Notes: generated by a model from the letters alone, not told the origin. A stretch of DNA of 56,400 nucleotides from Coriobacteriales bacterium (GCA_017434185.1 JAFRFV010000138.1:1-56400); one strand, 5' to 3'. Positions 213 through 56,400 are shown, counted from the stretch's first letter. Made by a program: numbers and translations.

Positions 213-470
213 GATGATCAGCTCCTATCTGCCAAGCATCATAGGGAATCGCGCGGGGGGCGACGGCGCGCCGGTGACATGCCGTCACCATGCGACAACG
301 TGCCGTTACGAACGGCGGGGATCATGGGGATAAGCGCTGCACTGCGCTCGCAACACACACAAAGTTCCGCTGGATGCCGCAGGAGCCCCGTCCAGACGAA
401 TCGTGTGTGTGCGAGGGGGATAAGCGCTGTGCACGCACGACCGCAAGCGGGAGCAGCGCGTCCCTCGCAC

Positions 471-508
471 AAAAAAGACGCTCCTTCGAGGCATCACGAA
501 GGAGCGTC
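471..508 (-). terminator. Intrinsic terminator downstream of purC
   Basis: 12-bp stem GACGCTCCTTCG/CGAAGGAGCGTC with A6 on + (U-tract on -). Confidence 0.8.
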
Positions 509-535
509 CCTGCTTGCGGCGGTGGTACGAGCGGC

Positions 536-1219
536 TTACGCGAAGAAGAGCTCGTTGAGCTCGAGCGGCTGGATGTAGACGCCGTCCTTGTAGACGCGCA
601 TGTTACCGGAAGCGATCTCGTCGATGAGCATGACGTCGCCGTTGGCGTCGTAGCCGAACTCGAACTTGATGTCGTACAGGTCCAGACCCTTGGCGGCCAT
701 GTCGTCAGCCACGAGCTTGGTGATCTTCTGGGTGAGCTTGACGATGGCGTCGTACTGCTCGCCGCTCATGATACCCAGCACGATCAGGCCGTCCTTGGTG
801 ACCAGCGGATCGCCCTTGGCGTCGTCCTTGAAGGTGGTCTCCACATAGTAGGGCAGGTCAGCGGCCTCCTCGATGTAGTCGCTGTAGCGGCGATAGAAGG
901 AACCGACGGCCTTGCGGCGGCAGATGACCTCCAGGCCCTTGCCAAAGGTCTTGGCGGGCTTGACCTCCATGGTGGTGTCATCCAGGTTGGCGGCCACGAA
1001 GTGATTGGGGATGCCGGCCTCGTTGATCTTGTCGAAGTAGTACTGGGTCATACGCAGGTTGATGTTGCCAACGCCCTCGATGGTCAGACCGATGGTGTTC
1101 ATGCCGGGGTCGAAGACGCCGTCGGCACCGGTGCAGTCATCCTTGAAAGCGAGCAGGTAATTGCCATTGTCGAGTGCGAAGACGTTCTTGGTCTTGCCCG
1201 TGTAAACCAGTTTCTTCAT
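536..1219 (-). CDS. purC: SAICAR synthetase
   Basis: [38 protein letters not shown] motifs; start moved to the ATG at 1219 after a GGAAGG RBS. Confidence 0.95.
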
Positions 1220-1272
1220 GTAGCGACCCTTCCCTTGTTCGAACGTGGAACCCGAAGTCTGTACGATAGCGC

Positions 1273-1304
1273 AAAAAGCGACCCCGCGGGGTTTCCGCGG
1301 GGTC
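1273..1304 (-). terminator. Intrinsic terminator downstream of purH
   Basis: GACCCCGCGG/CCGCGGGGTC stem with A5 on +. Confidence 0.7.
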
Positions 1305-1315
1305 AGCGACAACAT

Positions 1316-2896
<1,581 letters not shown>

Positions 2897-2926: not shown

Positions 2927-3550
2927 CTACGATAGCACCTGTACCACGCTGCGCCCCGCGTCGTTCACGGTCACGCGTACGCGATCCTCGGCGATCCACT
3001 GCAGCACCTGGGGATACAGCTTGTGCTCCACCTTGTGCATGGCGGCTTCGAAGTCCTCGAAGGACATGCCCGGCTCGATACGCACGGGCTCCTGGGCGAT
3101 GATGGGCCCACGGTCGTATTCGGCGTTGGCGAAGTGCACGGTGATGCCGCTCACCTTGACGCCGTGGTTCCACGCGTCCTGCATGGCGTGCGCGCCCACG
3201 AAACTGGGCAGCAGCGCGGGATGGATGTTGATCACGCGAGTGGGGAAGGCGTCCAGGATGTTGGCGCCCACCTTGCGCATGTAACCGGCCATGACCACGT
3301 AGTCCACGTCGTGGTTGCGCATGGCCATGGCGATCACGGCGTCGGCCAGGTCCGGTTCCGCGTAGGCTTCGCGCGTCATGTTCATCGTGGGGATAAGCGC
3401 TTCGCGTGCCCGCACCAGCCCATAGGCCTCGGGCTTGCTGGCGATCACGATCTGCACGCTGGCGTCCAGGGTGCCCGCCGCGATGGCGTCGATGATGGCC
3501 TGTAGGTTGGTCCCACTGCCGCTGATGAGAACGCCCAGCTTGATGGTCAT
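2927..3550 (-). CDS. purN: Phosphoribosylglycinamide formyltransferase
   Basis: VLISGSGTNLQA, AGYMR, INIHPALLP, GITVH, DRGPII motifs. Confidence 0.97.
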   Translation of the reverse strand: MTIKLGVLISGSGTNLQAIIDAIAAGTLDASVQIVIASKPEAYGLVRAREALIPTMNMTREAYAEPDLADAVIAMAMRNHDVDYVVMAGYMRKVGANILDAFPTRVINIHPALLPSFVGAHAMQDAWNHGVKVSGITVHFANAEYDRGPIIAQEPVRIEPGMSFEDFEAAMHKVEHKLYPQVLQWIAEDRVRVTVNDAGRSVVQVLS

Positions 3551-4608
3551 GCGTACACCACTTTACCCTTCGCGGCTGGGCCTTCGTCACTCGCGACGAT
3601 ACGACCCACCGTGTACACCTTCTCTCCGGCGGATTCCAGCTTCGCGGCGATGGCGGCTGCGGCATCCGGCGGGCAGATCACGCACAGGCCGATGCCCATG
3701 TTGAAGGTCTTGAGTGCCTGCTCCTGCGAGAGCGCCGCAGCGCTTATCACCTTGTTGATGATGGGCAGCACGGGCCAGCTGCCCAGTTGCACCTGCGCAT
3801 CGAGGCCGGCGGGCAGAGCGCGGTCCAGATTCTCGGTGATGCCACCACCGGTGATGTGCGCGAGCGAGTGCACAGGAAGCCCGGCCGCGAGCACATCGAG
3901 CACGCTGCGCACGTAGATGCGGGTGGGTGCCAGCAGCGCCTCGCCCAAGCTGCGGCCGTCCAAGTCGTCGCAGGGCGCGAGCAGCTGCTCGTTCGTGAGC
4001 TTGTCCGTTAGTGCGCGGCGCACCAGGCTGAAGCCGTTGCTGTGGATGCCGGTGGAGGCGCAGCCCAGGATCACATCGCCCTCGCGCACATTGGCGGGGT
4101 CGAGCATCTTGGGGCGATCCACCACGCCCACGCAGAAACCGGAGAGGTCGTAGTCGTCCGGGTCCATGACTCCGGGGTGCTCCGCCATCTCTCCGCCGAT
4201 GAGCGAGCAACCCGCCTGACGGCAGCCTTCGGCGATACCGGCCACGATGCGCGCCACGTGCTCCGCACGCAGCTTACCTATGGCGACGTAGTCCAGGAAG
4301 AACAGCGGCTCGGCACCGCAGGCCAGGATGTCGTTGGCGCACATGGCCACCAGGTCGATGCCCACCGTGTCGTGCATGTCCAGACGCTGGGCGAGTGCGA
4401 GCTTGGTGCCCACGCCGTCGGTACCGGACACCAGCAGCGGATCCGCCATGTCCTTGGCGGCGGCGATGGAGAACAGGCCTCCGAAACCACCGATGTCACC
4501 CACGACTTCGGGTCGATAGGTCGACTTGACCGCGGCGCGGATCGCACCCACCGCTCGGGCGCCCTCGCTGGTATCGACTCCGGCGTCCTTGTAGGTGAGC
4601 TCTGCCAT
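3547..4608 (-). CDS. purM: AIR synthase
   Basis: TYKDAGVD, GTDGVGTK, GGEMAEHPG, HSNGFSL, AHITGGG, TFNMGIG; start MAELTY with AAGGAG RBS. Confidence 0.97.
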   Translation of the reverse strand: MAELTYKDAGVDTSEGARAVGAIRAAVKSTYRPEVVGDIGGFGGLFSIAAAKDMADPLLVSGTDGVGTKLALAQRLDMHDTVGIDLVAMCANDILACGAEPLFFLDYVAIGKLRAEHVARIVAGIAEGCRQAGCSLIGGEMAEHPGVMDPDDYDLSGFCVGVVDRPKMLDPANVREGDVILGCASTGIHSNGFSLVRRALTDKLTNEQLLAPCDDLDGRSLGEALLAPTRIYVRSVLDVLAAGLPVHSLAHITGGGITENLDRALPAGLDAQVQLGSWPVLPIINKVISAAALSQEQALKTFNMGIGLCVICPPDAAAAIAAKLESAGEKVYTVGRIVASDEGPAAKGKVVYA

Positions 4609-6166: not shown

Positions 6167-6216
6167 CGGTAGGTATAGAACGGCCGCACTAACGGCGATG
6201 GGGCCGCGCTTATCCC

Positions 6217-7203
6217 CTACTTGCCGGGGTAGCCAAGCTTGAGCGCGTTCACGAAACGGTTCCCGCCCTCGACGTAGTGGAAGCCCGGCAGCTTGCCGCA
6301 GTTCATGAGCGCAAGACCCAGGTTGAGAGCGCGCTTGGGGCTCACCTTGACGGCGTCGGCCAGCTCCTGGGCGCTGATCTGATCGTGGGGGATGATGGCG
6401 TTGACGCAGTCCTTGAGCAGGATCATGCGGCGGATGATCAGGATGCAGCTCGCGATGCCCAGCGCAGCGACCACGATGAAGACGGCCAGCAGGATTCCGC
6501 GGGCCACCGGGTCAACGATGAGGCCCTTGCCCATGAGCACACCCACCACGATAGCACCGATCGTGCCGATGGCACCGAAGATGAGGCAGGTGGCGGCGAG
6601 CGCCCTGAGCTCGTCGTTGTCGGCGGAGCCGAACCACGCGTGCTTGCGCTTCACGATGTACTGGCGGTTGGGCGGATAGCCCTGGTAGGGAGGCCGCCCG
6701 TCGGTGAAGGCGATGCGGTAGTTGTCCAGGTCGAGCACGCAGTCCTTGAGCTTGCGCTTGTTGATCATGTGGCGCAGCTCGTTGATGCAGGTGGCATCGG
6801 AGACCTTGGTCTTGCTGGCGATGTCGGCGATGTTGGTGTAGAAGCCCTCGGCGATGATGAGCTGGTAGAGCGCCTCGCGCTCGAGCGCATTGCGGGTGCG
6901 ACGGGAACCGGCAAGCAGCGTGATGCCAAAGATGATGCCCACGACCAGCGGAATGAGCGCCATGAGGGGCGAGCGACCCGTCTCGGCCGCGCTGGGCACA
7001 TAGCGCAGCACCAGATAGATGACGACGGCGGCGAGCACGCCTACGGTTATGAAGGATAAGCCCAGCCACTTGAGCACACCGGCCTTGCCGGAATCGACCT
7101 GCGGCGCAGGGGCATGACTGCGAGCGGGCGGCATACCCGGAGGAGGCGCGAGCGGCGCCGGAGGCATGGGTACCAATGGTTGCTGCTGATCCTGCTGTGA
7201 CAT
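6217..7203 (-). CDS. Membrane protein with two (2xTM + winged-helix-like) units
   Basis: Pro-rich N-terminus, four hydrophobic helices, HTH-like segments IADIASKTKVS and AQELADAVKVS. Confidence 0.75.
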   Translation of the reverse strand: MSQQDQQQPLVPMPPAPLAPPPGMPPARSHAPAPQVDSGKAGVLKWLGLSFITVGVLAAVVIYLVLRYVPSAAETGRSPLMALIPLVVGIIFGITLLAGSRRTRNALEREALYQLIIAEGFYTNIADIASKTKVSDATCINELRHMINKRKLKDCVLDLDNYRIAFTDGRPPYQGYPPNRQYIVKRKHAWFGSADNDELRALAATCLIFGAIGTIGAIVVGVLMGKGLIVDPVARGILLAVFIVVAALGIASCILIIRRMILLKDCVNAIIPHDQISAQELADAVKVSPKRALNLGLALMNCGKLPGFHYVEGGNRFVNALKLGYPGK

Positions 7204-11490: not shown

Positions 11491-12633
11491 ATGCAGGTCA
11501 TCATCTCACACGAAAGCGCGATCGAGTTCTGGCTCACCTGGGGTGACATCTACCCCGGTGTGCCCTGCAGCGTCCCAAGGGGATATCGCCTGCAGCTGAG
11601 CGCCGCGGAGATTCCCGGCCTTGCTCTCACGATGCCGCTGCATGTGCTGATCGCGGGGCAGGAACAACGGCGTAGCGACCCGCTGCGTTGCCACATACTC
11701 GAGAAACTGCCGCCCAAGAGCCTGCGTCAAGTGGGCAACGGCATCTACGTCGTGTGCCCCGAGCTCGCATTCATGCAGCTCGCGGCGGCGAGCGCGCGTG
11801 ACGAGCGCGAGCTCATCGTGCGGGGCACGCAGTTGTGCAGCCAGTATTCGCTCGATTCAACGAAAGAGAATGGGCTGCGGCCACACGCTCCGCACAGCAG
11901 CACGAAGGCGATCGCGGATTTCGCGGCGGCGAACCCAGGACTGCGAGGCGCACATCGCGCGTTCCAGCTGGGCAAACGACTTCTGGATGGCAGTCGCTCG
12001 CCCATGGAGGGCAAGCTCGGACTCACGATGGGGCTCCCGCACCGCCTGGGCGGCTACAGCGAAGCCGACTTCGAGATGAATGGAATCGTGCAGCTGTCCA
12101 ACAAGGGCGAAGCGATGCTGCGACGCCCAAGCTGTGAGTGTGACCTGATCTGGCGGAAGCTGGGCATCGTGCTCGAATATGACAGCGACCAGCACCATTC
12201 GCGGCAACCGGACCTGAAGCGTGACACTCGCCGCCGTGAAGCGCTGCGCGTGTCCGGGCTCGACGTGACCGTGGTCACTGGCGACCTCTTCAACTCGTAC
12301 ACGTGGATGGACGAGCTCGCGCGGCGCATCATGAAGGCGCGCACGGGCCGCTTCCGTGCGTGGCCGGACGACTTCCGCTTGCGGCAGAGTGCACTGCGAC
12401 GCGCGCTGCTCGCGTTCGACAGCCAGCGACCCGCGGAGCTGCCCAGGAAGACGCGCGGCAAGAGGGTCGTGCCCGCGGGCGACTTGACGCAAAATATCGA
12501 GATTAGTGGTTCGATGCTGGAAGCGGCGAGGGGTTTGACGCAAAAAGTCGAGATTAGTGGTTCGCCTTCCGACCAATCGACCGTCGTCTACTACGCTCTC
12601 GAGTTCAAACCAGACGAGGATCCCTTGGGATAA
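11491..12633 (+). CDS. DUF559/Vsr-like PD-(D/E)XK nuclease-domain protein
   Basis: SRSPME...LGGY, CDLIW...LEYDSDQHH...DTRRREAL...G; paralog of 54578-55567; C-terminus reads through two repeat copies. Confidence 0.7.
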   Translation: MQVIISHESAIEFWLTWGDIYPGVPCSVPRGYRLQLSAAEIPGLALTMPLHVLIAGQEQRRSDPLRCHILEKLPPKSLRQVGNGIYVVCPELAFMQLAAASARDERELIVRGTQLCSQYSLDSTKENGLRPHAPHSSTKAIADFAAANPGLRGAHRAFQLGKRLLDGSRSPMEGKLGLTMGLPHRLGGYSEADFEMNGIVQLSNKGEAMLRRPSCECDLIWRKLGIVLEYDSDQHHSRQPDLKRDTRRREALRVSGLDVTVVTGDLFNSYTWMDELARRIMKARTGRFRAWPDDFRLRQSALRRALLAFDSQRPAELPRKTRGKRVVPAGDLTQNIEISGSMLEAARGLTQKVEISGSPSDQSTVVYYALEFKPDEDPLG

Positions 12634-12733
12634 GCCCGGATTGACGGGCTTATCAACCACTAATCGCCACTTTTTGCGTCAAAAGAAGGCTTCGCTGGCG
12701 GCGCTAACCACTAATCGCCACTTTTCGTGTCAA
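12484..12733. repeat. Repeat array family A: two direct plus two inverted 28-bp units, 51-bp period
   Basis: TTGACGCAAAAAGTCGAGATTAGTGGTT-like units at 12484 and 12535 (+), 12655 and 12706 (-). Confidence 0.9.
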
Positions 12734-13389: not shown

Positions 13390-13929
13390 CTAGAGTGTTC
13401 CCGCCGCGCGTGCCGCTTCGACCTCCGCGATGGCGTCCGCGGGCGAGAACTCGCAGTGGCCATCGCCGCGCTTGACCACCACGATGGGGTCGCCGGCTTG
13501 CACCCAGCCACCCTGCAACACCACGGCGAAGATGCCCTCACGGGGGAAGATGCAGTCGCCAGCCAGATGATAGATGGCGCAGCGCGTGTGACAGACCTTG
13601 CCGATCTGGCTCAGCTCGACCAGCACCTCATCACCGATGCGCATCTGACTGCCAAGCGGCAGATCGAGCAGGTCGATGCCCTGGGTGGTGAAGTTCTCGG
13701 CGAAATCGCCTTCCTTCACATCGAGGCCCATCGCCCGCGCCTTCTCGATGGACTCGAAGGCGAGGAAGGAGACCTGACGGTGCCAGTCGCCAGCATGGGC
13801 GTCGTCCTCGAAGCCCCACTGCTCCTTCACGTAGAGGCGCTTATCCCCTACTGGGGTCTTGCGCATCTTCTTACGCGGCGAGATGTTTATGGAGCGCACG
13901 ACCGGTGTGCTTGCTTCTGACTGAGGCAT
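13390..13929 (-). CDS. MOSC domain protein
   Basis: GFEDDAHAG..HRQVS, GDFAENFTT, QIGKVCH..C, PREGIFA; GGGGAGG RBS. Confidence 0.9.
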   Translation of the reverse strand: MPQSEASTPVVRSINISPRKKMRKTPVGDKRLYVKEQWGFEDDAHAGDWHRQVSFLAFESIEKARAMGLDVKEGDFAENFTTQGIDLLDLPLGSQMRIGDEVLVELSQIGKVCHTRCAIYHLAGDCIFPREGIFAVVLQGGWVQAGDPIVVVKRGDGHCEFSPADAIAEVEAARAAGTL

Positions 13930-15363: not shown

Positions 15364-16140
15364 CTACCTGTCGCCTTCGATCCGCAGGCCGCCCAGGATC
15401 TGCCCCACCGGCGCGGCGATGCACAGCTCCGCATGGGAGTCGAGCGACGTGGGGCTCATGTTGCAGATCACCAGGTGGTGCCCACGGAAGTAGTGCACGA
15501 AGCCCGCCGCCGGATAGACCGCGAGCGAAGTGCCCGCCACGATGAGCACGTCGGCAGCCTCGATATCCGCGAGTGCGGCGCTTATCACCCGCTCGTCGAG
15601 TTGCTCTTCGTAGAGCACAACGTCGGGTTTGATGATCCGGCCGCAGCTCTCGCAGCGCGGTACGCTGTCGTCCGCCTCCGCGGCGCGGGCGAGCAGGCCC
15701 TCCAGGTCGTAGAAACGTCCGCAGCCCTCGCAGTAGTTGCGCAGCACGCTGCCATGCAGCTCACGCACCTGGGTGCTGCCCGCCGCCTGATGCAGGCCGT
15801 CGATGTTCTGCGTCACGACGCTGCGCAGCTTGCCCACGCGCTCGAGCGCCGCCAGCGCCAGATGCGCGGCATTGGGCGCGGCGTCGCGGTAGATCATGCG
15901 GTCCAGGTAGAAGCGGTAGAACTCACGCGGATCGCGCAGGAAGAAACTGTGCGAGATGATGCGCTCGGGCGGATACTTGTACTTGAGGTTGTACAGGCCG
16001 TCGGCGCTGCGGAAATCGGGGATGCCGCTCTCCGTCGAGACGCCCGCGCCGCCAAAGAACACGATGCTCCCCGGGCCGGCGTTGTCGATGATCTCCTGCA
16101 GGCGTGCCTGCTGTTCGAGCTGCTGCTGTGTGAGGGCCAT
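15364..16140 (-). CDS. cobB: NAD-dependent protein deacylase (sirtuin)
   Basis: GAGVSTESGIPDFR, TQNIDGLH, HGS, two CxxC, KPDVVLYEE, GTSLAVYPAA. Confidence 0.95.
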   Translation of the reverse strand: MALTQQQLEQQARLQEIIDNAGPGSIVFFGGAGVSTESGIPDFRSADGLYNLKYKYPPERIISHSFFLRDPREFYRFYLDRMIYRDAAPNAAHLALAALERVGKLRSVVTQNIDGLHQAAGSTQVRELHGSVLRNYCEGCGRFYDLEGLLARAAEADDSVPRCESCGRIIKPDVVLYEEQLDERVISAALADIEAADVLIVAGTSLAVYPAAGFVHYFRGHHLVICNMSPTSLDSHAELCIAAPVGQILGGLRIEGDR

Positions 16141-16170: not shown

Positions 16171-16202
16171 GGGGATAAGCGCGTCGCGATGCGCTTATCC
16201 CC
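16171..16202. terminator. Hairpin formed by an inverted pair of GGGGATAAGCGC motifs
   Basis: Perfect 12-bp stem with 8-nt loop, 27 bp downstream of the 16230 stop. Confidence 0.6.
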
Positions 16203-18423: not shown

Positions 18424-18469
18424 TGGGTTGCAGCTAGAATAGGGATGTTGGGATAAGCGCTGCGGTCAA

Positions 18470-19496: not shown

Positions 19497-20648
19497 ATGG
19501 ACATCGCGCAGTTCAGGGACGAGACGATCGAGCTCGTGGTGAGGGTCAGTCGCAGTTGGAAGAAGGGCGACCGGGACTTTCCCAAGCTTGCCAATGGCCT
19601 GTACGAGGCCAGTCTGTTCTTCGATCGTGCCGTCGACCCGCGCAGTGGTGCGACCCTGGAAGACGGCGGCCGCGGAAAGATCATCTGGCACACGCCCAAG
19701 AAGCACTTCGGTTTCCCCTACGGCCATGACTTCGAGGCAGGACACCTGTACCACCTGGCGCTGCGTCGCGAACGCGAATCCTCAAGTACGGTGACCACCA
19801 GCTACTATCTGGAGCGTGTGATCGCACGCGACGTGTTCGACCCGCGCCTCGACCCCGCGCTCGAATTCGCCGGCAAGTACCAGGACCAGGACCTGGAGCG
19901 TGTCCTACTCACCCAGAGCGGACCCCGCGGCTGGGCGACGGCGTTCGGCCACTACGTGGCGGGCATTCGCTACCTGGCCTTCGCCGCGGATGGCGATGCG
20001 AGCGCCACGGCACGCGTGGGGCACCTGCGCTGGCGTGAACCCATCAAGGGCGGGCGCCCCAGGATCAGCTTCGCCGAGCTGGGCACCTACCGGGCGATCG
20101 TGCGCGAGAGCAAGGACGACCCGCGTGCCCTGATGCTGGTGAAGCTGCTGGGCAAGGTGAATGACCCCCGCTTCGACACCGCCAAAGCGGATTACCTCGC
20201 GCCCGTCGTGCTGCACGACAGCCTCTGCGATTTCACCTTGGATAAGCGCTACGACTGGTACAGCGGTGTCATCGACTGGCTGGGTACCCAGGTCGAGGTG
20301 CTCCTGAACGTGGAGACCGGCGAAACCGACGCCAGCATGCAACTCGCGAAGCTGCACGGGATCTGCGCTGACATGGCCGCCTGCGACGCCCGCGTGAGGG
20401 CATACGCCGCCCAGGAGCTATTGGAAGGCGCACGCGATTGGGCTGCGGACGCAGCGCAGGACGACGAAGAGCCCCAGGAACTCAGCGCCGAACAGTTCCA
20501 GGAGCGCATCACGCCCTGCTCCATCAGCATCGGAGATGATGGCAGTGTGGACTTCAACTTCGACGACGGCAACCTGTTCTGGGGTCACGTGATCATCGTG
20601 AGCATGGACGCGAACGGCGAGTTCACCGGCGCGGATATCGCTGGCTAG
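19497..20648 (+). CDS. DUF2262-like protein
   Basis: C-terminal FNFDDGNLFWGHVIIV resembles DUF2262; GGAGG RBS. Confidence 0.65.
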   Translation: MDIAQFRDETIELVVRVSRSWKKGDRDFPKLANGLYEASLFFDRAVDPRSGATLEDGGRGKIIWHTPKKHFGFPYGHDFEAGHLYHLALRRERESSSTVTTSYYLERVIARDVFDPRLDPALEFAGKYQDQDLERVLLTQSGPRGWATAFGHYVAGIRYLAFAADGDASATARVGHLRWREPIKGGRPRISFAELGTYRAIVRESKDDPRALMLVKLLGKVNDPRFDTAKADYLAPVVLHDSLCDFTLDKRYDWYSGVIDWLGTQVEVLLNVETGETDASMQLAKLHGICADMAACDARVRAYAAQELLEGARDWAADAAQDDEEPQELSAEQFQERITPCSISIGDDGSVDFNFDDGNLFWGHVIIVSMDANGEFTGADIAG

Positions 20649-21446: not shown

Positions 21447-24400
21447 TCAGTTCGCTTTCGTTATCACCGCATAGGCGCCATCGTCGATGGCGCGCAGCAG
21501 CGTGATCAAGTCGCTCTTGGCCAGCAGCACGCAGCCGCCCGAGTTCACACCCACATCGCAGTGGATGAAGAAGGCGCTGCCCGCCCCGGGAACGGTGTCC
21601 GGGTAGTTGTACTGGATGAAGATGCAGTGGTCGTAAGCGCTGCCAACGCTGCTGATGTGCTCGGCCGACTTCCAGTCGCGGCTCACCTGGCTCGCATCTA
21701 CCCAGCGGTTGTAATATGCGGAATCGGAATCATCCACCCAATAGATGTTGTTGTTCGCCACGCGGTATTCCATGCTCGTGCCCGGGTTCGCCACATTCCC
21801 GAAGGCGAAGCCCAGCAGATACGTGCCCGCGGGTGTGGCATTGCAGGCGCCTTCGTAGATATCGCTGCTCACGCCGTTGGGCCCCACACGGCAGTCGAAG
21901 CGCAGCGTCTCCTGCCAGCCGTCATCCGTGAGCTCATGGAACGTGAGTACGCCGCCAGCACCACCCGTACCCTGGATCGCGACGATCTGCTCGCAACTGG
22001 CGGCGATCGCATAGGAGGCCGCGAAGGACTCGCCTGCTCCGGGCAGGACGCTCACGGCATCGTCCATGAAGTACGTCTCGGTCACGCCCGTCAGTTGATC
22101 ATGGACATCAACCCACAGGTGATAAGCCCCGCTCCACGCAGCCGTGACGCTCGCTTGCGACTCGCTCGTGCGGGCACCCGTGTCCTTGACGGTGGAACCC
22201 CAGTGGTTCCAGCTGTCCCCGCGCTTCCACGCGAAGTTGTACTCGAGATCGTCCGCGCGCGGCCCCGTCACGTTGACGGCGAAGTCGATCGACCCACCAC
22301 GCTCGATGTCCCCGGTCGTGAGCAGCTCGATGCCCTCGAAGCTCCAACCCTGCTCCACCTGATACGACTCCGCGGCCACATACGTGCTCTTCTTCCCGCT
22401 CGCATCGATCACGTCCACCCAGATCTCGTACGCGCCCATCTCAGGCAGGATGAACTCGGCGGTGGAACCACTGCGCGCGCTTCCACCATCTTTGAGGTCG
22501 GAATCCCAAGTGCTCCAACCCGGCTTCAAGCGCCAGGCGAAGTTATAGCTGAGCCCCGCGGTGTTGGAACCCTCCGCGAAGACGACCTCCACGGTGACGG
22601 GCTCACCGGGTGCGCCGGCATCGGGACTCACGACGACGCTCTCAACCTGCCAATCCTGCGTCACCACCAGGTCGCGATAGTACTGTCTGGTCCTGCCGTT
22701 GGCTTGCTGCGCGTCGATCCACAGGCGGTAGTTGCCCGGCTTGCTGGGCGTGAAGGACCAGCTGGTCTCACTCGTAGTTGAGCCGGTGCGCTTGACGGTG
22801 GAATCCCAGTCGTCACCCCACTGGCCCTCCCAGCTCCAGGCGTAGTTGAACTCGGCGCCGCTCGCATCACCTGCGACCTGTGGTGTCATCGTCACACTCT
22901 GGCCCAGCATGATGCGCGTGGCGGAGATCTCGAGTCCCGTGACCTGATAGGGCAGGTCGACCGGCTCCGGCTGATACCAGACGATGCGCCCGCCCATGCT
23001 GGAGAAGCCCGCTTGGAAGCCGTCCAGGCTCCAGGAATGCGTGCTGCCCCAAAGCGGGTCGGTCACCCTGATGGCACCCGGCTCATAGCCACTCACCACC
23101 ACGGCATGTTCGTTGTAGGGCCAGGGCACGCTCTCGCCGGTCTTGTAGTCGGTCCAGGTTGGATAACCCCAGCGGATGTACCCATCGGTGCGCATGCTGA
23201 TCCAGGCGATCAGGGGCTCGCCTTGGTCGAGGCACCAATAGATGTCCTCCATCACAGCGCCCACCAGGCTGCTGGCACCATCCAGGTATCCGTTCGCGAG
23301 GTCCGCGATGGGCTTCTCGAACACACCGTAGCCACTCGTCTTCGTGGGATCGCCGATGAACGCACGCTCGGGATTGCCGCCCACACCACCGCTGGGACCC
23401 GGTTCCCTGGGCAGATCGCTCACGATCTCCCACATACTCACATCGACGCCGTAGTACTGGAGCAGCATGTACAGCGACGCGCTCTCGCATCCCGTGGGAT
23501 AACCGTTCGCAGTCTGATCGTAGGCTGCCACATCGATCTGCACGGCATCACTCTGCGCGTCGTACGTCACCTGCAGCTCGCGCTCGAAGAACTGCGTCGT
23601 CCCATCCGGGGCGACCGCATCGATCCACACGCGGTATTCGCCCGGAATGGGCGGCTTGAAGTCCCATGTGGGATCCTTGCTGCGCTCACCCGTGCGCAGG
23701 ACCGTCGAATCCCAAAGGTCCCAGCCGTCCGCGAAAGCCCAAGCGTAATTGAATTCGAATCGCGACGCATCGCCCTTGGCATGGGGTGATAAGGTCACGG
23801 TCTCCCCCCATGCGATACTCGTCGCGGAGAGATCGAGACCGGTGATCCCGTCCGATGCTTCGACGACGTATTCCTCGCTCGCGGTGAAGGTCCGACTCGT
23901 TCCCTCCGCATCGATCACATCCACCCAGATCGTATAGACGCCAGCGCCGGGAAGCGTGAGCGCGGCGCTGGATTCACTGCGTGGGCTGCCGCCATCCTTC
24001 AGGTCGGAGTCCCAAACGCTCCAATCGGGATTCTTGCGCCAGACGAAGTTGTAGGAAAGCCCCAAGGTGTTCGACCCATCCGCGAAGTGCAGCGTCACCT
24101 GCGTGTCGATACCTGGAGCGCCGGGGTCCGGACTGAGCTCGATGGATTCGAGTTCCCAAGCGGGCCCCACGGTGAGTTCGCACTGGAAGAGCTGTGTCGT
24201 GCCGTCAGGCGCCACCGCATCTATCCACAGGCGATAAGCGCCTGCTCTGCGCGGAGTGAATTCCCAGCTCGTCGCGGATGTGCGGGAACCGGTGTCGAGC
24301 ACCGTCGAGCCCCAGAAGTCCCAGCCTGAGCCGAGTGCCCAGGCGTAGTTGAACTCGAAACCGCTCACATCACCGCTGGTCTGCGGCGTCATGGTGACGG

Positions 24401-35004: not shown

Positions 35005-38000
35005 ATGGTATCCACGGCGGAGCTGGCGCGGCACTGCGCACAGCAGTCGATCGCACGCGCCCAGCGCATCGCGAAACTGGACAGCAGTATCATGTCACGC
35101 CGCTGCGAGTACGGCGACGGTACCGACGACTCCCTCACCCTGCGCGCCTTCGTCATGAGCGAGAGCGAATGGAACGAACGCTATCGCGTGAGCGTGAAGC
35201 TGGATGGCAACCTGGAGCAGATCCGCGACTACAGCTGCACCTGCCCCGCCAGCTACAGCTTCGATGGCATGTGCAAGCATGCCGCCGCCGTGCTGCTGTC
35301 GTTCCAGAAGGCCCCGGAGAAGTTCAGCGGGTACCAGCCCAAGCGCGTCATGAACACGTCGGCGCCCCTGAGCGAGTTCATGCGCCAAGCGGATCGCAAC
35401 CCGGGGGTCGCAGCTGCCGCCAGCGCGGCGGGCGCGACGGACACGGGTGATGCTGCGGACGTGGCCCCCATCCCCGCGGGCAGCATCGACCTGCTGCCCA
35501 CCCTGACGCTCAACTACAACGAATGGCGGCTGAGCTTCAAGATCGTGGCTCCTACCTGTGAATACGTGCTCAAGAACGTGGGCGAGCTCGTGGAGGACCT
35601 GCGCTTTCGCCGCTATCACTCCTATGGCAAGAAGCTGGGATTCACCCACCTGCCCAGCATGTTCACTCCGCATGCCCAAGCACTGCTGGACTTCCTCACG
35701 CGCGCGGTGGAGGTGCGCCGCAAGGTCGAGCAGAGCAGCTTCATGCACTACGGACGACCTGTGAGCGTGGGCAAGGACCTGCCCTTGTCCGATGTGGAAC
35801 TCATTGACTTCCTGGACATGCATCGTGGTGACAGTGTCGACGTGAGGCTGAGCGGCTGGGGCTCGAGGGATGACAACTTCCGTGCTCCCATCCTGGGCGA
35901 GGACCCCGACCTGCGGCTCGACCTGACCACCTGCGACGGTGGCTTCCTGCTGCTGTCCAGCATGCGTCCGCGCGTGATCGCGAGCGGCCGGCGCATGTAC
36001 CTGCTGTGCGAGCAGCGCTTCCATGATTGCAGCCCCGCTCTGGCGGCCAATGCCGACTTCATCCGCAGCGTTCTGGGCATCAGCTCCGATGCGCTGTTCA
36101 TAAGCGAGCAGGACATGCCGCGCTTCTGTCAGCTGCTGCTACCGTCGCTCGAGAGCGGCTTCAAGATGAAGCTCGACCCCAGTGTGGGGCGCTACCGCCC
36201 CCAGCCCTGCGAGCTCGAGTTCTACCTCGATCGCGTGGAACAGCAGGTGAGCTGCATCGTGATGGCCCGCTACGGCGAAGTCGTGCACACGCTTCTGGGC
36301 GGCATGCGGGGCGACGCCGCGGATGATTCGGCGAGCGTGCCCGGTCCCGCCCGCAACATGGGCAAGGAGGATGCGGCGCTGCAGCTGGTGCGTGAGTTCT
36401 TCCGCATCGTTGCGCCGGATGGAGCGGGCGCTGTGAGCGCGGGCGCTGCGGAGATGCCCGGGATGAGAGCGCTTATCGACAGCAGGTTCGACGAAGCGAA
36501 TCTGGGCGCGCTGCTCTTTGGCGGACTCGCGCGTTTCAAGGCCCTGGGCACCGTGTTCACGACCCCGGCCTTCGATCGCCTGCTTTCGGATAAGCGCCCC
36601 CGCGTGTCGACCGGCCTTTCGCTGGCGGGCAATCTGGTGCGTCTGGATGTGATGAGCGACGACCTCGAGCCCAAGGAGCTGGCTGCTCTGTTGGGCAGCT
36701 ACCATCGCAAGAAGCGCTACCATCGCATGAAGGACGGCAGCTTCCTGGACCTTTCCACGTTGGATCTGGGGCAGGTCGACCGCCTGATGGACGATCTGAG
36801 CCTGAGTCTGGGTTCCTTCAAGGACGGGCACTTCGAGCTGCCCAACTTCCGTGCCTTCTATCTGGACCAGGAACTGGAGGATGCGCAGAAGGACGAGGCC
36901 TTCAGGGACTACATCGACAAGCTCGAGCATGCCCGCGAGAGCGAGCGCGCCGTGCCGGAATCGCTCGCAGGCGTGCTGCGCGGCTACCAGGTGGAGGGTT
37001 TCCGCTGGCTGAGCACGCTCTGCGAACTTGGCTTTGGTGGCATCCTGGCCGACGAGATGGGTCTGGGCAAGAGCGTGCAGCTCATCTCGCTTCTGCTGGA
37101 GCGCAAGGAAGCCGGCGAGCAGGCGCATCCCAGCCTGATCGTGTGTCCCGCGTCGCTCGTGTACAACTGGCAGGTGGAGTTCAACCGTTTCGCGCCCCAG
37201 ATGGACGTGCGCATAATCGCTGGCAACAAGGACGAACGGGCGCTCATCCGCGCGCATCAGGCGGGTCGCTGCGATGTCATGGTGACCTCATACGACCTGC
37301 TGCGCGCCGACATCGACGAATACGCGCGGCTCGAGTTCAGCTGCTGCGTGCTGGACGAGGCACAGTACATCAAGAACGCGACGACGCTCACCACCAAGGC
37401 ATGCAAGCGCGTAGTGGCACAGCACCGTTTCGCGCTCACCGGCACGCCCATCGAGAACCGCCTGGGCGAGCTGTGGAGCATCTTCGACTTCCTCATGCCG
37501 GGCTTCCTGGGCAGCTACAAGCGCTTCCGCGAGCGCTTCGAGATGGGCATCGTAGGCGGCGACGAGGATCTGTCGCAGCGACTCGCCGCGCTGGTGGGGC
37601 CCTTCATGATGCGCCGCCTCAAGGCCGACGTGCTGCGGGAGTTGCCCGACAAGCTCGAGACCTGCATCGTCACACAGATGCTGCCGGAACAGGAGCGCCT
37701 CTACGATGCCCACGAGCAGCGACTGCGCGAGTCGCTGCAAGCGCAGAGGAAGAAGGACTTCGACCACAACCGCATCCAGGTGTTGGCGGAGCTCACCATG
37801 CTGCGGCAGCTCTGCTGCGACCCCGCGCTCGTATACGACGACTACACGGGAGGCACCGCCAAGCTGGACAGCATCCTGGAGTTGGTGCTGCAGGCCATGG
37901 ACAGCGGTGCGAAAGCGCTCATCTTCAGCCAATTCGTGAGCTTTTTGAACGTGATCGCGCAGGGATTGAGCGATCACGGCATCGACTTCTTCACCATCAC

Positions 38001-39131: not shown

Positions 39132-40037
39132 TCACTCGGACCACCTGACCGTCTTCTTGACGAAGAGGGTCACCAGCCAATCCAATACGGTCACCACGAT
39201 GCCCACCAAGATGATACCCGCAACCACGTTGGTGTAGTTGGCATAGTTGGTGTAGTTGATGATGAAATAGCCCAAGCCGCTGGTGGCACCGTACATCTCC
39301 GACATGACCATGATGAGCATGGCGGAAGGCAGTTGCAGCTTGAGACCCTTCGCGATGGAAGGGTAGAGATACGGCAGGAGCACCTTGAATATCATGGTCC
39401 CCGTGCCCACACCCAGCATCTTGGCGGTGTCCACGATGCGCTTATCCATCGCCTCTATGCGAAGGATGGTGTTGAGCATGGTCGACCAGAAGATGCCCAG
39501 GAAGATGACCATCGCCGCCGCCATCCTGAAGCTGGGCAGCAGGAAGATGAGATAGGGCGTGAAGACGATGGCGGGCACGGGAGCAAGCACGCGCGCGATG
39601 GGATAGACGGTCTCGCGCACGCGTGGCAGCCAACCCACGATCAGACCCAGCAGGTTGCCCACGACGATGGCCGTGAGGAAGCCTTCCGCGAAGAGCGTCA
39701 GCGACGACTTGATGTTGCGCATCAGCTCCGGTGTCTTGTTGGAGAAGACGGCGAAGACGTTCTCGGGCAGGGGGATGAGCACCGGATGGGTGAGACCCAG
39801 GTCCGTGGAGACCAGCTCCCAGACGATCAGCAGCACCCACACGATGATGACGATATAGCAGCTCGAGGGCTTGCGCTTGCTCTTGGGTAGGTAGTGCCAC
39901 AGGAACAGCGCCTCGATAATCACGGTCGCGACGATGAAGGGCACGTTCGTGGGGGTGTCCATCCTGCCGGGAATCAGGATGATGGTGATAAGCGCCACGA
40001 AGAGCACGTTGGCCAGGATGAAGCTGGGGCGTTTCAT
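39132..40037 (-). CDS. NitT/TauT-type ABC permease
   Basis: Multi-TM; VDTAKMLG EAA-like loop, SEMYGATSGLGYFI. Confidence 0.88.
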   Translation of the reverse strand: MKRPSFILANVLFVALITIILIPGRMDTPTNVPFIVATVIIEALFLWHYLPKSKRKPSSCYIVIIVWVLLIVWELVSTDLGLTHPVLIPLPENVFAVFSNKTPELMRNIKSSLTLFAEGFLTAIVVGNLLGLIVGWLPRVRETVYPIARVLAPVPAIVFTPYLIFLLPSFRMAAAMVIFLGIFWSTMLNTILRIEAMDKRIVDTAKMLGVGTGTMIFKVLLPYLYPSIAKGLKLQLPSAMLIMVMSEMYGATSGLGYFIINYTNYANYTNVVAGIILVGIVVTVLDWLVTLFVKKTVRWSE

Positions 40038-45310: not shown

Positions 45311-45343
45311 ACGCAGGGTGCGAAGCGACGCGCTTATCCCCCG

Positions 45344-46528: not shown

Positions 46529-46644
46529 GGGAAGCTCCTCCGTTCACGTTGTCTATTGCAATTCTGCGATTACGCGACGGTGCTCGCACAGGGCGAGCAC
46601 CGTGAAGTGGCGTATTTTGCGGATAAGCGCTTACTTGGAGCAGC

Positions 46645-52294: not shown

Positions 52295-52836
52295 AGAGTC
52301 ATCTCGAGCTTGCCGCCAGCACCATCAGCACTGCTGAAGGGCACGAAATCGATCCGCTCCAGAAGCTGATCGCTGCAGAAACCGGCACCCGCCATGTCCC
52401 GCAAGGCTTGGCGGGTGCTGTCATAGAATCCGTTCACGTTGATGAAGACGATGGGGTACTCCGTGGGCGAGAGCTTGGCCAGGGAGATCACATCGCTCAT
52501 CTCATCCCAGGTGCCAGGACCGCCCGGAAGCGCCACGAATGCGTCTCCCAGCCGGTACATGCACTGCTTGCGCGCGGCGAGATCGGGCGTTTCGATGCAT
52601 TCGTCCAGGTCCTGGTATTTGCGGGCTTGGATAAGCGCGTTGTTGGTGAGGACACCGGTCAGCTTGGCACCGGCAGCACGCGCCGCATCGGCCACCGCGC
52701 CCATGAGTCCCGTGCGGCAACCACCCCAGACCAGATCATGGCCGTTCCGGCCTATCCACGTACCCAGCCGCTGGGCCGCCAGGATGAAGTCGGGATCGTT
52801 CCCGGTACTGGAACCACAGAAGACCACGATGTTCAT
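52291..52836 (-). CDS. LOG-family (TIGR00730) nucleotide phosphoribohydrolase
   Basis: VFCGSS, WGG..GLMGAVA, RK, LPGGPGTWDE, NGFYD. Confidence 0.88.
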   Translation of the reverse strand: MNIVVFCGSSTGNDPDFILAAQRLGTWIGRNGHDLVWGGCRTGLMGAVADAARAAGAKLTGVLTNNALIQARKYQDLDECIETPDLAARKQCMYRLGDAFVALPGGPGTWDEMSDVISLAKLSPTEYPIVFINVNGFYDSTRQALRDMAGAGFCSDQLLERIDFVPFSSADGAGGKLEMTL

Positions 52837-53626: not shown

Positions 53627-54052
53627 CTAGACCAAGCGACCCTTGGTATGGTCGATGGCGTGCTGGATGCACTCCGCGACCCACTCGGTGAAGCGCTTCT
53701 CCTTGCGCACGAGCTTGCCGTCCTCAAGCTCCTCGAAGCTCACCTTGATCACGTTGAAGCGTGTGACCGTGCTCTCCTTGCTGATGCTCAGGCAGTTCTC
53801 CGTGGCCTTGAAGGGCTGGGTGGCCTGCTTGATGCGCGGGTTGAACATGACGTGGCGCTGCTCGTCCTCGTCCTCGTAGGCGATGATGGCTTTGTCGGAG
53901 CCGATCTGATTGGCAGCCAGGCAGACGCAACCGTCCTCTATGGAAGCCATGGTGTCGAGCAGGTCCTGCCCGATCTGCTCATCCTCCGCGGTGGCGGGAA
54001 CAGCCGGCTTGGCGAGGGCTTCGAGGTCGGTAACGATTTCCTTGATCATCAT
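53627..54052 (-). CDS. Peptide deformylase-like protein with HEXXH changed to HAIDH
   Basis: CVCLAANQIG, ENCLS, QHAIDH; AAGGAG RBS. Confidence 0.82.
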   Translation of the reverse strand: MMIKEIVTDLEALAKPAVPATAEDEQIGQDLLDTMASIEDGCVCLAANQIGSDKAIIAYEDEDEQRHVMFNPRIKQATQPFKATENCLSISKESTVTRFNVIKVSFEELEDGKLVRKEKRFTEWVAECIQHAIDHTKGRLV

Positions 54053-54223
54053 GACTCCTTGTTGCGGACGGAAAGGCGCGGGGGCATACGGGTGCACGAG
54101 CGTTGGGGCGCGTGCATTGGGATGCGAGCGTGCGTTGGGGCGAGGGCGCCGGAAAGCGCACTTGCACATGATACGCCTTCGCGCTTCTTCGCGCAGCCTT
54201 CCTTCTTGCTCAGCGCCTTTCTT

Positions 54224-54519
54224 TGGAAGATTCTCGACCACAGGAGAATGGATTGTCGCGACTTTGCCAAAAAGTGGACCATAAGAGAACGGATTGTAGC
54301 GGCTCTGCCAAAAAGTTGACCATAAGAGAATGAAATCTTGCCCGCAAGCGCTCCGGATCCCTGTATTTTTACTATTCTGGTAAAGTGTTTACAGCAACAC
54401 GGGCATTTGGCCCACCTTCGGGCGCGAAAACGTCCGAGAATTCGATCGATTCATTCTCTTATGGTCCACTTTTTGGCAGCACTGCGTCATCCTGTTCTCT
54501 TATGATGGGTTTTCTGCCA
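54224..54519. repeat. Repeat array family B: three direct plus two inverted 25-bp units, 41-bp period
   Basis: TGCCAAAAAGTGGACCATAAGAGAA at 54265 and 54306 (degenerate at 54224); inverted at 54454 (perfect) and 54495 (degenerate). Confidence 0.88.
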
Positions 54520-54577
54520 CGAAACAGCAGAATTGTTATCATCACACAACACGAAGACCGCACGAGCAAGGAGGCTC

Positions 54578-55567
54578 ATGGACATCATCCTGGCAGGAGA
54601 AACAGCCTTGCAGTATTGGCGGCAGAATCGCAGCGATCGCCCGCTCCCCAATGCGAGCATGATCAAAGGCGGCCATGGGCCCTCCCTTGCCAAAGTGGAG
54701 GCGGAGCTGCTGGCTGACGCCTATCAGCTGTCACTTCCGCTTTGCATCTATGCCCACGAAGAGAGTCAAACACGCAGGGATGCATTCTCCACCACGGTCC
54801 GCTGTTCTGCTGGCAATGCGCCGGCAATCATCAGGCTTCATGAGGGCCTTGCGGTGAGCACGCCCGAATTCGCCCTGCTCCAAGTCGCGCACCGCAGTTC
54901 ACCTGTGAGGCTCCTGTACGATTGCTACGAGCTGTGCGGTGACTTCAAGCGCAACGAGTTCTCCGGCAGCGGGTTCATCACCGTTGCCCCGCTCATGACC
55001 CCCGAGAGCCTTGAAGCCTTTTTGCGCAGCATTCCCACCATCCCGTCAGTGAATGACCGACCCCAGTGTGTCCGCGGAGCGAACAATCTCAGCCGATTGC
55101 TCCCCTTCCTCGCTGCGAATGCCCACTCCCCCATGGAGATCGAAACCGCCATGCGCTTCGTGCTCCCCTACAAGCTGGGCGGATACAAGTTGCCTCTGAT
55201 GCAGCTCAATCCTGAACTCAAGTTGACTTCGGCTCAGCAGAGGATCCTCGGTCGACCAACCCTCAAGCCGGATCTCTACTGGCCGCAGCAACGCGTGATA
55301 GCGGAATATGAATCCGCTCTCCACATGAATCCCGAGCAGCATGCATATGACGCTCTTCGCAACAACGCCTTCACCGAACTCGGCCTCCAGAAGATCCTCA
55401 TCACTTCGGACCATCTGAGCAGCGTGCGCAAGATGGATGAACTCGCAGAGCAACTCGCCAGACTCCTGGGCAAACGCATGCGCCCCAGCATCAGTGACCA
55501 TCTTGTTCGCAAAGACCGGCTGGCCCGAGAGCTCTACCAGATTCGTCAAGAGCGCAGCTCACTCTAA
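54578..55567 (+). CDS. DUF559/Vsr-like PD-(D/E)XK nuclease-domain protein (paralog of 11491-12633)
   Basis: STPEFALLQ, ELCG, AHSPME...LGGY, PDLYWP...AEYES..H...DALRNNAF...G; AAGGAGG RBS. Confidence 0.72.
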   Translation: MDIILAGETALQYWRQNRSDRPLPNASMIKGGHGPSLAKVEAELLADAYQLSLPLCIYAHEESQTRRDAFSTTVRCSAGNAPAIIRLHEGLAVSTPEFALLQVAHRSSPVRLLYDCYELCGDFKRNEFSGSGFITVAPLMTPESLEAFLRSIPTIPSVNDRPQCVRGANNLSRLLPFLAANAHSPMEIETAMRFVLPYKLGGYKLPLMQLNPELKLTSAQQRILGRPTLKPDLYWPQQRVIAEYESALHMNPEQHAYDALRNNAFTELGLQKILITSDHLSSVRKMDELAEQLARLLGKRMRPSISDHLVRKDRLARELYQIRQERSSL

Positions 55568-55577
55568 AAGGAGCCCC

Positions 55578-56400
55578 ATGGCAGTGAGCCCCAACATAGA
55601 TCGCGAGCTTGAAGCGTTGGCAGCGGCCGGCGCGGTCATCCTGCGGTCCCAGGAGCAGCGCGGGCGCTGGCGTGAGCAGCATGGCAGCCACTTCGCGCGC
55701 GTGCATCTGGACTACGGCTGCGGGATGGGCGACTACTGCGTTGGCGCTGCCGCCCAGAACCCCTCGACCCTGTACATCGGCTTGGACGTGGAGCTCTTCT
55801 GCGTCGCCAAAGCCGCACGCAAGGCGCTCGATGCCGGCGTTCCCAACACCCTGTTCGCTGCCGTCCCCCGGGATTCCGGTGCCGCGGAACTCTCGCGGTT
55901 CTTCGCCCCCGCGGAGCTCGACTCCATCTCGATCAACGTCCCTACGCCCCACGCGCGTGCTGCTCAGGCGTCGCAGCGCATGACACACGCGAGCGCGCTC
56001 ATGGCATACCGCGAACTGCTGACACCGGGCGGCAACCTGGACTTCAAGACCGACAGCCAGCCGCTTTGGGACTACAGCCTCATCCAGTTCGAGCTCGCTG
56101 GTTATGCGATCACCTGGCGCAGCGATTCAGAGGATAAGCGCCGCGCTCCCAGCCCCATCACCGGCTATGAGAGACGGCTCGCCGCTCAGGGCGCCCGTAT
56201 CCTCGAGCTTGAAGCTCGACCCCTGGCGCCCGCCTCGGACCCCGCGAGCATCCAGCAGACGGCTCCCCAGAGCCTCTACGACTACCTGCCCCAGGACCTC
56301 GAATCGCTCACATACATCCCCGCAGATATGCGCCGCAGCGTCCGGAACATGATCGAGGCACGCGCCCGCGTGGCGCAGTCCCGCGCCGCCCGCGCCGCCC
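55578..56400 (+). CDS. trmB: tRNA (guanine-N7)-methyltransferase, truncated by window end
   Basis: AAGGAG RBS; HLDYGCGMGDY, YIGLD, INVPTPH, LDFKTD motifs. Confidence 0.8.
   Translation, partial: MAVSPNIDRELEALAAAGAVILRSQEQRGRWREQHGSHFARVHLDYGCGMGDYCVGAAAQNPSTLYIGLDVELFCVAKAARKALDAGVPNTLFAAVPRDSGAAELSRFFAPAELDSISINVPTPHARAAQASQRMTHASALMAYRELLTPGGNLDFKTDSQPLWDYSLIQFELAGYAITWRSDSEDKRRAPSPITGYERRLAAQGARILELEARPLAPASDPASIQQTAPQSLYDYLPQDLESLTYIPADMRRSVRNMIEARARVAQSRAARAA

Follow-up and report, generated by a model that had tools for sequence, protein, structure and literature searches.

A hyperabundant asymmetric word dispersed through the genome of a Coriobacteriales bacterium as a candidate DNA uptake sequence

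Sequence-specific DNA uptake is a textbook case of a molecular bias that rewrites a genome, and even a proteome. One recent account of DNA uptake sequences (DUS) and uptake signal sequences (USS) describes them as confined to two proteobacterial families, the Neisseriaceae and the Pasteurellaceae, and as present within as well as outside genes, frequently in the form of terminator inverted repeats, with biased reading frames and an avoidance of those frames that contain a stop codon (10.1101/2025.10.24.684340). Here we analyze a word of 12 bases, GGGGATAAGCGC, that is iterated in a stretch of 56,400 nucleotides from a Coriobacteriales bacterium (GCA_017434185.1 JAFRFV010000138.1:1-56400; referred to as the window) and that an earlier examination of this stretch had put forward as a candidate DNA uptake sequence (the original prediction). 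We use the terms 12-mer for GGGGATAAGCGC, 10-mer for GGATAAGCGC and 9-mer for GATAAGCGC; GATAAGC is the core heptamer. The window is contig C133 of a metagenome-type assembly (G000; 1,991,729 bases in 268 contigs; 62.1% GC) that is 93% complete with 3.65% contamination.

The word resembles the Neisseriaceae DUS, which is read by the minor pilin ComP, in several features that the same account describes, namely a short asymmetric core with graded flanks, hundreds of copies on both strands without polarity, an occurrence in spacers as well as in genes (there in preferred frames and with the stop-containing frame avoided), convergent pairs downstream of genes, and specificity for a lineage (10.1101/2025.10.24.684340). 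It differs from the DUS in its unrelated sequence, its two- to three-fold lower density and its presence in one genome only, with no family-wide series of dialects. Its host is also different: it appears to be a monoderm and has a Tad-type pilus, not a type IVa pilus that crosses an outer membrane. A ComP-like receptor was not identified; no search aimed at a ComP-like pilin was made. With the Pasteurellaceae USS the word has in common a 9-mer core, weaker flanks and a large genic share of copies, and also, with regard to what one study of the USS describes, the over-representation of the encoded tripeptides in the proteome (PMC2817400). It is set apart from the USS by its sequence, its density, its restriction to a single genome, its monoderm Tad-bearing host and its roughly seven-fold intergenic bias.

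Eleven perfect 12-mers are present in the window, five on the plus strand and six on the minus strand, while not one of 100 dinucleotide-preserving shuffles yielded any. The 10-mer occurs 20 times in all (11 times within 12-mers and nine times further), and the 9-mer 29 times, against a shuffle mean of 0.26 and a shuffle maximum of 2; the variants GATAAGCCC and GATAAGGGC are found seven and five times, respectively. The original prediction had arrived at the same 11 perfect copies by hand, with every position and strand correct (11/11). It had likewise placed all nine further 10-mers properly, had estimated about nine further 9-mers where we find exactly nine, and had seen the variant forms as well as the occurrence in both coding and intergenic DNA. 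Its figure of about 65% GC for the window has to be corrected to 63.0%. The strand bias that it had found to be absent is absent from the window and from the entire assembly alike, which contains 173 12-mers (80 on the plus, 93 on the minus strand), 469 10-mers (232 and 237), 704 9-mers (348 and 356) and 1002 copies of GATAAGC.

A genome-wide count of k-mers, a check that had been proposed together with the prediction, showed that the word is not confined to this region: GGATAAGCGC ranks first among all 10-mers of the assembly at 79 times the expectation from an order-3 Markov model, and GGGGATAAGC reaches 98 times this expectation genome-wide. Overall, the 9-mer recurs every 2.8 kb and the 12-mer every 11.5 kb on average, and the copies are spread evenly across its contigs (index of dispersion 1.10, p = 0.20, for the 141 contigs of at least 5 kb). 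The counts on individual contigs fit one coding rate (0.144 per kb) and one intergenic rate (1.04 per kb), figures that, like all others on location, depend on gene models from a simple in-house gene caller (1718 genes, 90% coding). Since two rates suffice for all contigs, an enrichment restricted to one region is excluded. Hence, the over-representation of GGGGATAAGCGC is real, strong and genome-wide.

An alignment of all copies yields an asymmetric logo of about 16 bp that reads (C/T)A-GGG-GATAAGC-GC-nn-C. In the spectrum of single mismatches, positions 4-10 form a hard core; within it, positions 4-9 are nearly free of variants (0-10 copies each) and position 10 has slightly more of them (G in 16 copies), while positions 1-3 and 11 are graded; for example, 75 copies have T at position 1 and 34 have C at position 11. 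The 487 intergenic and the 1248 genic GATAAG sites give the same logo. Beyond it, the flanks are unrelated: on average 5.9-6.1 of 22 flanking bases are identical between copies, and no more than 14 of 107,880 pairs of copies have at least 17 of these 22 bases in common. The copies are therefore not pieces of a longer repeat.

The orientation of the copies is also not tied to GC skew. Where G exceeds C, the 10-mer lies 127 times on the plus and 133 times on the minus strand, and where C exceeds G the corresponding numbers are 105 and 104; runs of like orientation are not seen either, with 111 neighboring copies on a contig in the same and 161 in the opposite orientation. dnaA was not found in the assembly (no match to PF08299 and only a sub-threshold match to PF00308), and the origin region is therefore probably missing from it as well. 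As far as the fragmented contigs and an origin outside the assembly allow, a polarity of the replichore type, which the original prediction had named as an observation that would speak against it, is excluded.

The excess in genes was measured against a null in which synonymous codons were shuffled within each gene. Compared with this null, the 9-mer occurs in genes 432 times versus 54.2 +/- 7.4, the 10-mer 258 times versus 20.6, and the 12-mer 81 times versus 2.6, which amounts to an 8- to 30-fold excess. Codon or dipeptide bias, a further observation that the original prediction had considered damaging, thus does not explain the word. Two reading frames are favored, encoding D-K-R and A-L-I, and the stop-containing frame is empty. 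Of 167 D-K-R tripeptides, 148 are spelled GATAAGCGC where codon usage predicts 36, and of 512 A-L-I tripeptides, 151 are spelled GCGCTTATC where it predicts 15.5. Both tripeptides also exceed their amino-acid expectation (167 versus 78 for D-K-R, 512 versus 355 for A-L-I), so that the word has marked the proteome. The choice of GAT over GAC before AAG follows the word as well: GAT is used in 94% of the cases if CGC follows and in 0-8% if the next codon ends in G. For the codon usage of this genome, in which AAG accounts for 92% of Lys, CGC for 56% of Arg and ATC for 90% of Ile, the word requires the minority codons GAT, CTT and GGG. The most codon-biased tenth of the genes carries the fewest copies, 0.085 per kb versus 0.19-0.35 per kb elsewhere.

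How genic copies came about was addressed with orthologs. From the 369 genes with a 9-mer, 32 could be matched in a 100-kb sample of a genome of the same family (G002), and 20 motif sites fell inside the alignments. All nine sites in alignments of at least 55% identity are ungapped against similar or identical residues (ARDKRF versus ARDNRF and WISAG versus WISAG are examples), and gapped sites are confined to alignments of 25-37% identity. These nine of nine ungapped sites show that the genic copies arose by point substitution, not by insertion.

The 173 12-mers comprise 75 in intergenic DNA, 17 across a stop codon and 81 in genes, 40 in sense and 41 in antisense orientation; the genic share of the 9-mers is 61% (431/704). 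The density of the word is nevertheless about seven-fold higher between genes (1.04 per kb) than in coding DNA (0.144 per kb), and among intergenic regions it falls from the convergent (1.59 per kb) through the tandem (1.02 per kb) to the divergent ones (0.63 per kb). Most intergenic copies are near stop codons and gene 3' ends. The TAA inside the word even serves as the stop codon of 39 genes, and a TAG whose G opens the word as that of 11 more. Close inverted pairs are convergent in 10 cases and divergent in two across the genome, one of the convergent ones being the pair at 16171-16202 in the window. Clusters are rare, with seven groups of three copies within 250 bp. A site for a transcription-factor regulon was rejected on these grounds, given that divergent spacers are poorest, convergent ones richest, and clusters of three so few.

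In our view, the word is the imprint of a DNA reader with sequence specificity, and substitutions have inscribed the bias of this reader in the genome. What the analysis demonstrates is the abundance, evenness and strand symmetry of the word, its origin by substitution, its biases of frame and location, its restriction to this lineage and the presence of machinery genes. The best reading, to which we assign a probability of roughly 40%, is that of a DUS/USS-like uptake sequence that would belong to a Tad/ComEA/ComEC transformation system. GGGGATAAGCGC would then be the DNA-level 'self' word of its lineage, with the nearly invariant core GATAAGC and graded flanks; a sequence-biased process would have spread it chromosome-wide through successive point substitutions, with purifying selection clearing it from places where it was harmful. 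Molecular drive, as it acts on a DNA uptake sequence, would be the most likely process of this kind. In it, the transformation machinery would use a receptor for DNA on the cell surface that prefers word-bearing fragments, and a Tad/Flp-type pilus together with ComEA would feed ComEC and DprA; since fragments with the word would be bound better, conspecific alleles that carry it would be taken up and recombined more often. The word would in this way accumulate on both strands wherever it is tolerated, preferentially in the stretch from stop codon to terminator and, where it falls in a gene, in the D-K-R or A-L-I frame. We infer here that the reader acts at uptake, which protein does the reading and, indeed, that the organism is transformable at all.

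Genes for such a machinery are present, as a check proposed along with the original prediction would have them: a comEA gene (SLBB plus HHH_3) adjoins comEC on contig C186, dprA is located on C63, and a Tad locus on C51 encodes CpaB/RcpC, a ParA-like ATPase, TadA, two T2SSF proteins and a TadE-like pseudopilin. For another actinobacterium, Micrococcus luteus, one study describes a transformation that depends on the Flp/Tad pilus (PMC4322843); transformation in Coriobacteriia is not reported in the papers among the matches listed in our literature search. Omp85/BamA was not found in the 93%-complete assembly and the protein-atlas cluster closest to its PNPase consists mainly of Actinomycetota members, two observations that fit a monoderm actinobacterium without proving it.

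The uptake signal proposed in the original prediction is thus borne out in part: the word is genome-wide, unpolarized and in excess of codon bias, shows frame preferences and convergent pairs downstream of genes, and coexists with the machinery genes. Several findings weigh against it. ComEC is found in 39 and the Tad-type ATPase in all of 41 genomes of the order, and competence genes do not track which genomes carry a hyperabundant word; being universal in the order, these genes lend no weight by their presence here. Classical DUS and USS occur roughly once per kb, a density two to three times that of the word, and we know of no sequence-specific uptake in any monoderm bacterium. Inverted pairing is sparse, with a perfect downstream partner for 20 of 461 copies and about 10% of the copies in perfect inverted pairs, and intergenic copies are no more structured than control windows (mean minimum free energy -23.5 versus -23.0 kcal/mol, p = 0.13; 209 copies and 577 controls). 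On these two findings, from pairing and from folding, an interpretation of the word as a hairpin or terminator element was set aside. The assembly contains few mobile elements (four matches to the integrase family, of which two appear to be of Xer size), and genes with atypical codon usage are not depleted in the word (0.295 per kb in the lowest decile). The word is also confined to one known genome or lineage: the 10-mer, present 469 times here, does not exceed 13 copies in any of 40 relatives (two from the same family, 38 from the same order), and among 400 further genomes of the order, from 13 families and 115 genera, none has more than five copies of the 12-mer, present 173 times here. A one-step dialect in dispersed form was not found in samples of 80-100 kb from 14 relatives.

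Wider searches gave the same picture. A scan for convergent pairs of the 10-mer in the 185,579 species genomes of the GTDB (one genome per species, with the records of the window's own genome possibly left out) returned 108 scattered stretches, and none of these (at most 8 kb stored for each) holds more than four 9-mers. The nearest metagenome relatives, identified through the SNF2 helicase encoded in the window and at most 49% identical to it, are without the word (33 9-mers in 80 loci that comprise 1.22 Mb). As to a depletion of the word in foreign DNA, the contigs poorest in the word hold housekeeping genes (RNase Y, FtsK, PNPase, RNase J and ClpB) or a giant open reading frame (ORF), not mobile DNA.

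The search for dialects, which the original prediction had also suggested, brought no clear case in the relatives sampled and instead a different word in some of them. Two apparent dialects, the top word GGTACCGGGAACCA of G001 and GGAAAAGCGC of G356, one base off the word studied here, were rejected, as they form local arrays of short units and are not dispersed. These arrays have a period of 15-42 nt with units in both orientations; those of G001 (unit GGTACCGGGAACCA; loci L229, L232, L239 and L247) lie mostly at contig ends, and those of G356 (L324 at 8.4-9.1 kb and L325 at 16.7-17.3 kb) are built from CTCACGGAAAAGCGCA, one base from the 10-mer.

The different word, TGCCGAGAA, emerged from counts of k-mers in the samples of 80-100 kb from the 14 relatives. 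It has 739 copies in G007 (family f6) and 768 in G025 (f4), with (C)TGCCGAGAA(A/G) as its fuller form; there are 155 in G002 (f1), 157 in G022 (f12), 70-130 in many others and 34 in the genome studied here, and the five f3 and three f8 genomes sampled have 6-44 copies, mostly not far from what the backwards control gives. Across 500 kb of G007 the copies of this asymmetric word are dispersed and without skew; genes contain 126 copies versus 11.8 under the synonymous shuffle (10.7-fold), with use of minority NNT codons, and 75 of these 126 (60%) are in one sense frame, GCC GAG AAG. Its density in G007 is two-fold higher between genes. TGCCGAGAA and GGGGATAAGCGC are alike in being dispersed, unskewed, asymmetric and above the codon null within one order, and unlike in sequence, in the intergenic bias (two-fold, not about seven-fold) and in the lower-level presence of TGCCGAGAA in several families. 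An alignment of both as GA(G/T)AAG-nn-C was discarded as weak, the trailing C being a codon-position effect as well. TGCCGAGAA is not mentioned in the papers among the matches listed for its forms in a literature search, and the papers among the matches listed for the 10-mer forms of the word studied here concern primers or are unrelated. A tentative extension of the uptake reading, and one that we hold to be rather unlikely, is that members of the order use lineage-specific uptake sequences (GGGGATAAGCGC here; TGCCGAGAA in G007, G025 and, more weakly, in other families), which a Tad-pilus/ComEA system would read through a receptor whose specificity would have switched at least once.

Next after the uptake reading we rank its main rival, which the original prediction had also named as an alternative and which we nonetheless consider doubtful: the word would be bound by an abundant protein of the cytoplasm that recognizes this sequence, for instance one with a role in nucleoid organization, segregation, self-marking or protection against nucleases, and selection for that role would keep hundreds of sites chromosome-wide. 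An asymmetric logo of about 16 bp with a hard core and graded flanks would suit the footprint of one protein, as would the even and unpolarized spread and the sameness of the logo in genes and spacers, while the different word in other genomes of the order with the same competence genes is to be expected of a fast-evolving reader of any kind. However, the known families of such sites (parS, matS, SlmA and Noc) consist of palindromes and have some tens of members. Exact asymmetric sites of 10-12 bp that occur in the hundreds, stand at 80 times expectation and reach into codons are not known to us for any protein of the nucleoid or of segregation. Moreover, the sites are unclustered, as the seven groups of three within 250 bp attest, and avoid the promoter-bearing divergent regions. 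Their rarity in the most codon-biased genes (0.085 per kb) indicates that the word behaves as a tolerated cost, not as a locally needed site. Dispensing with a reader altogether, one could regard the word as a by-product of sequence-biased repair, gene conversion or mutation, for which very-short-patch repair and cyanobacterial HIP1 (highly iterated palindrome 1) would be the models. Its spread by point substitution in unique contexts agrees with this, and it contains GCGC, a common target of C5 methylation. Yet the known repair biases act on contexts of 4-5 bp, the word is non-palindromic with at least 10 informative positions, and a C5 methyltransferase (PF00145), Vsr (PF03852) and N6_Mtase (PF02384) were not found in the 93%-complete assembly, a search that was limited to these methyltransferase families. 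The methylation-linked process named as an alternative in the original prediction finds no support in this search either. HIP1 is, like the word, a hyperabundant short sequence of genes and spacers in one lineage, with a debated function, but it is a palindromic 8-mer tied to methyltransferases, whereas the word is asymmetric. All in all, we regard an origin as a repair by-product as improbable.

The remaining explanations carry far less weight still. That the copies are miniature mobile elements, or elements of the repetitive extragenic palindrome (REP/REPIN) type, spread by a REP-associated tyrosine (RAYT, Y1) transposase is very improbable. A Y1_Tnp gene does exist (C49:9884-10213, 60.5 bits), and REP elements are likewise short, dispersed and in part present as inverted pairs near gene ends. 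This gene, however, is flanked on both sides by its own family, a different palindromic repeat with the core GTGGAAAGGGGACGTGTTTCC.TCCAC, while the word is non-palindromic, mostly genic (61% of the 9-mers), free of insertions and deletions relative to orthologs, derived from substitution, and embedded in unrelated flanks. The GTGGAAAGGGGACGTGTTTCC.TCCAC repeat (C49:9585-10690) is a true REP/REPIN-like family, often in inverted pairs about 90 nt apart; a scan with a loose pattern gave 28 matches, 23 of them intergenic and most of the five coding ones without the core, and the window contains one REPIN-like pair at 48708-48829 with 49-nt arms that are 88% complementary. A polar chromosome signal of the type of Chi, the FtsK-orienting polar sequences (KOPS) or the SpoIIIE recognition sequences (SRS) might be suspected in any over-represented, G-rich and asymmetric oligomer, but Chi and KOPS words are 5-8 nt long and thus shorter than the word, and the 80/93 distribution on the strands, the lack of a link to GC skew and the 111 same versus 161 different neighbors leave this explanation hardly any credit. 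The smallest chance of all goes to a product of codon, dipeptide or composition bias: the preferred frames do use the common codons AAG, CGC and ATC, but the 432 genic copies compare with 54 under the null, minority codons (GAT, CTT and GGG) are needed, and non-coding DNA is densest in the word; the synonymous shuffle and the GAT/GAC choice refute it. Finally, read on its other strand, the word is similar to the DnaA box TTATCCACA, a 9-mer with 53 copies versus 4.2 expected. DnaA boxes were rejected, since 46 of these 53 copies are genic and read GTG GAT AAG (V-D-K), which makes them a side product of the GATAAG core.

The copies of the word in the window are compiled in Table 1.

Table 1. Positions of the word and of its shorter and variant forms in the window
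Form	Coordinates	Strand	Context
Perfect 12-mer GGGGATAAGCGC	326..337	+	intergenic, about 110 nt upstream of the start of a minus-strand gene
Perfect 12-mer	416..427	+	direct copy 90 nt past the copy at 326; at the uncertain 5' end of ORF 407-2662
Perfect 12-mer	3389..3400	+	antisense, within a minus-strand gene
Perfect 12-mer	6206..6217	-	abuts the stop of gene 6217-7134 (-)
Perfect 12-mer	13837..13848	-	sense strand, near the 5' end of gene 13390-13899 (-)
Convergent inverted pair of perfect 12-mers (16171-16182 +, 16191-16202 -)	16171..16202		8-nt spacer; between two minus-strand genes
Perfect 12-mer	30417..30428	-	intergenic, downstream of the stop of gene 30526-32625 (-)
Perfect 12-mer	32700..32711	-	divergent intergenic region
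Perfect 12-mer	34574..34585	+	intergenic, by the promoter region of a small Cys-rich minus-strand ORF
Perfect 12-mer	45330..45341	-	convergent intergenic region, stops at 45310 and 45344
10-mer GGATAAGCGC	18451..18460	+	divergent intergenic region
10-mer	20240..20249	+	in gene 19497-20648 (+)
10-mer	34173..34182	-	near the 5' end of gene 33426-34202 (-)
Overlapping palindromic pair: 9-mer 34783-34791 (+), 10-mer 34788-34797 (-)	34783..34797		inside a composite inverted-repeat element
10-mer	36588..36597	+	in the SNF2 helicase gene
10-mer	39438..39447	-	in gene 39132-40037 (-)
10-mer	46621..46630	+	intergenic, between two minus-strand genes
10-mer	52629..52638	+	antisense, in gene 52291-52836 (-)
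10-mer	56132..56141	+	in gene 55578-56399 (+)
9-mer GATAAGCGC	2264..2272	-	coding DNA
9-mer	3740..3748	-	coding DNA
9-mer	15578..15586	-	coding DNA
9-mer	24233..24241	+	coding DNA
9-mer	26702..26710	+	coding DNA
9-mer	31252..31260	+	coding DNA
9-mer	36469..36477	-	in the SNF2 helicase gene
9-mer	39987..39995	+	coding DNA
Convergent inverted pair of the variant GGGATAAGCCC / GGGCTTATC	12626..12654		center of a second composite inverted-repeat element

The two composite elements listed in Table 1 (12480-12750 and 34620-34840) have one common architecture. Each consists of two direct and one or two inverted copies of a unit of 29-31 nt (TTGACGCAAAAA.TCGAGATTAGTGGTT), and in both of them an inverted pair of the GATAAGC word adjoins the inner inverted arm. 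The assembly has no further exact match to a 24-mer of the unit outside these two places. The elements might be an operator array or the ends of a segment of about 22 kb. Close to the second element, at 34345-34561, a small Cys-rich, membrane-like ORF of about 52 codons is present on the minus strand (start near 34503); it is preceded by the perfect palindrome AGTTTAGGCTAAACT, which presumably resembles an iron box of the DtxR/IdeR type. Four large ORFs of the window (407-2662, 7176-10046, 30526-32625 and 40112-42124; 670-956 codons) matched no Pfam family at E <= 0.001. Elsewhere in the assembly, C39:17607-42278 is a single ORF of 8,224 codons (24.7 kb) that presumably encodes a giant surface protein, and C228:31073-37072 is a gene for an RHS-repeat protein of 2,000 codons amid those for RNase Y, FtsK, RNase J and PNPase.

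If the reading of the word as an uptake sequence is true, it would be the first DUS/USS-like self-recognition outside the Proteobacteria and the first in a bacterium without an outer membrane. It would also be the third independent case, set in a gut-type actinobacterium and marked by an unrelated word and a different type of pilus, which would make self-recognition a general evolutionary outcome of transformation, and it would point to a new kind of DNA receptor. Should the word instead be the site of a chromosomal protein, the number of exact sites for that protein would be unprecedented. Either way, the 12-mer can serve as bait for pull-downs and uptake assays, and as a marker for the binning and tracking of this uncultured lineage. 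Two different dispersed words within one order suggest that k-mer surveys of genome collections would reveal more such systems.

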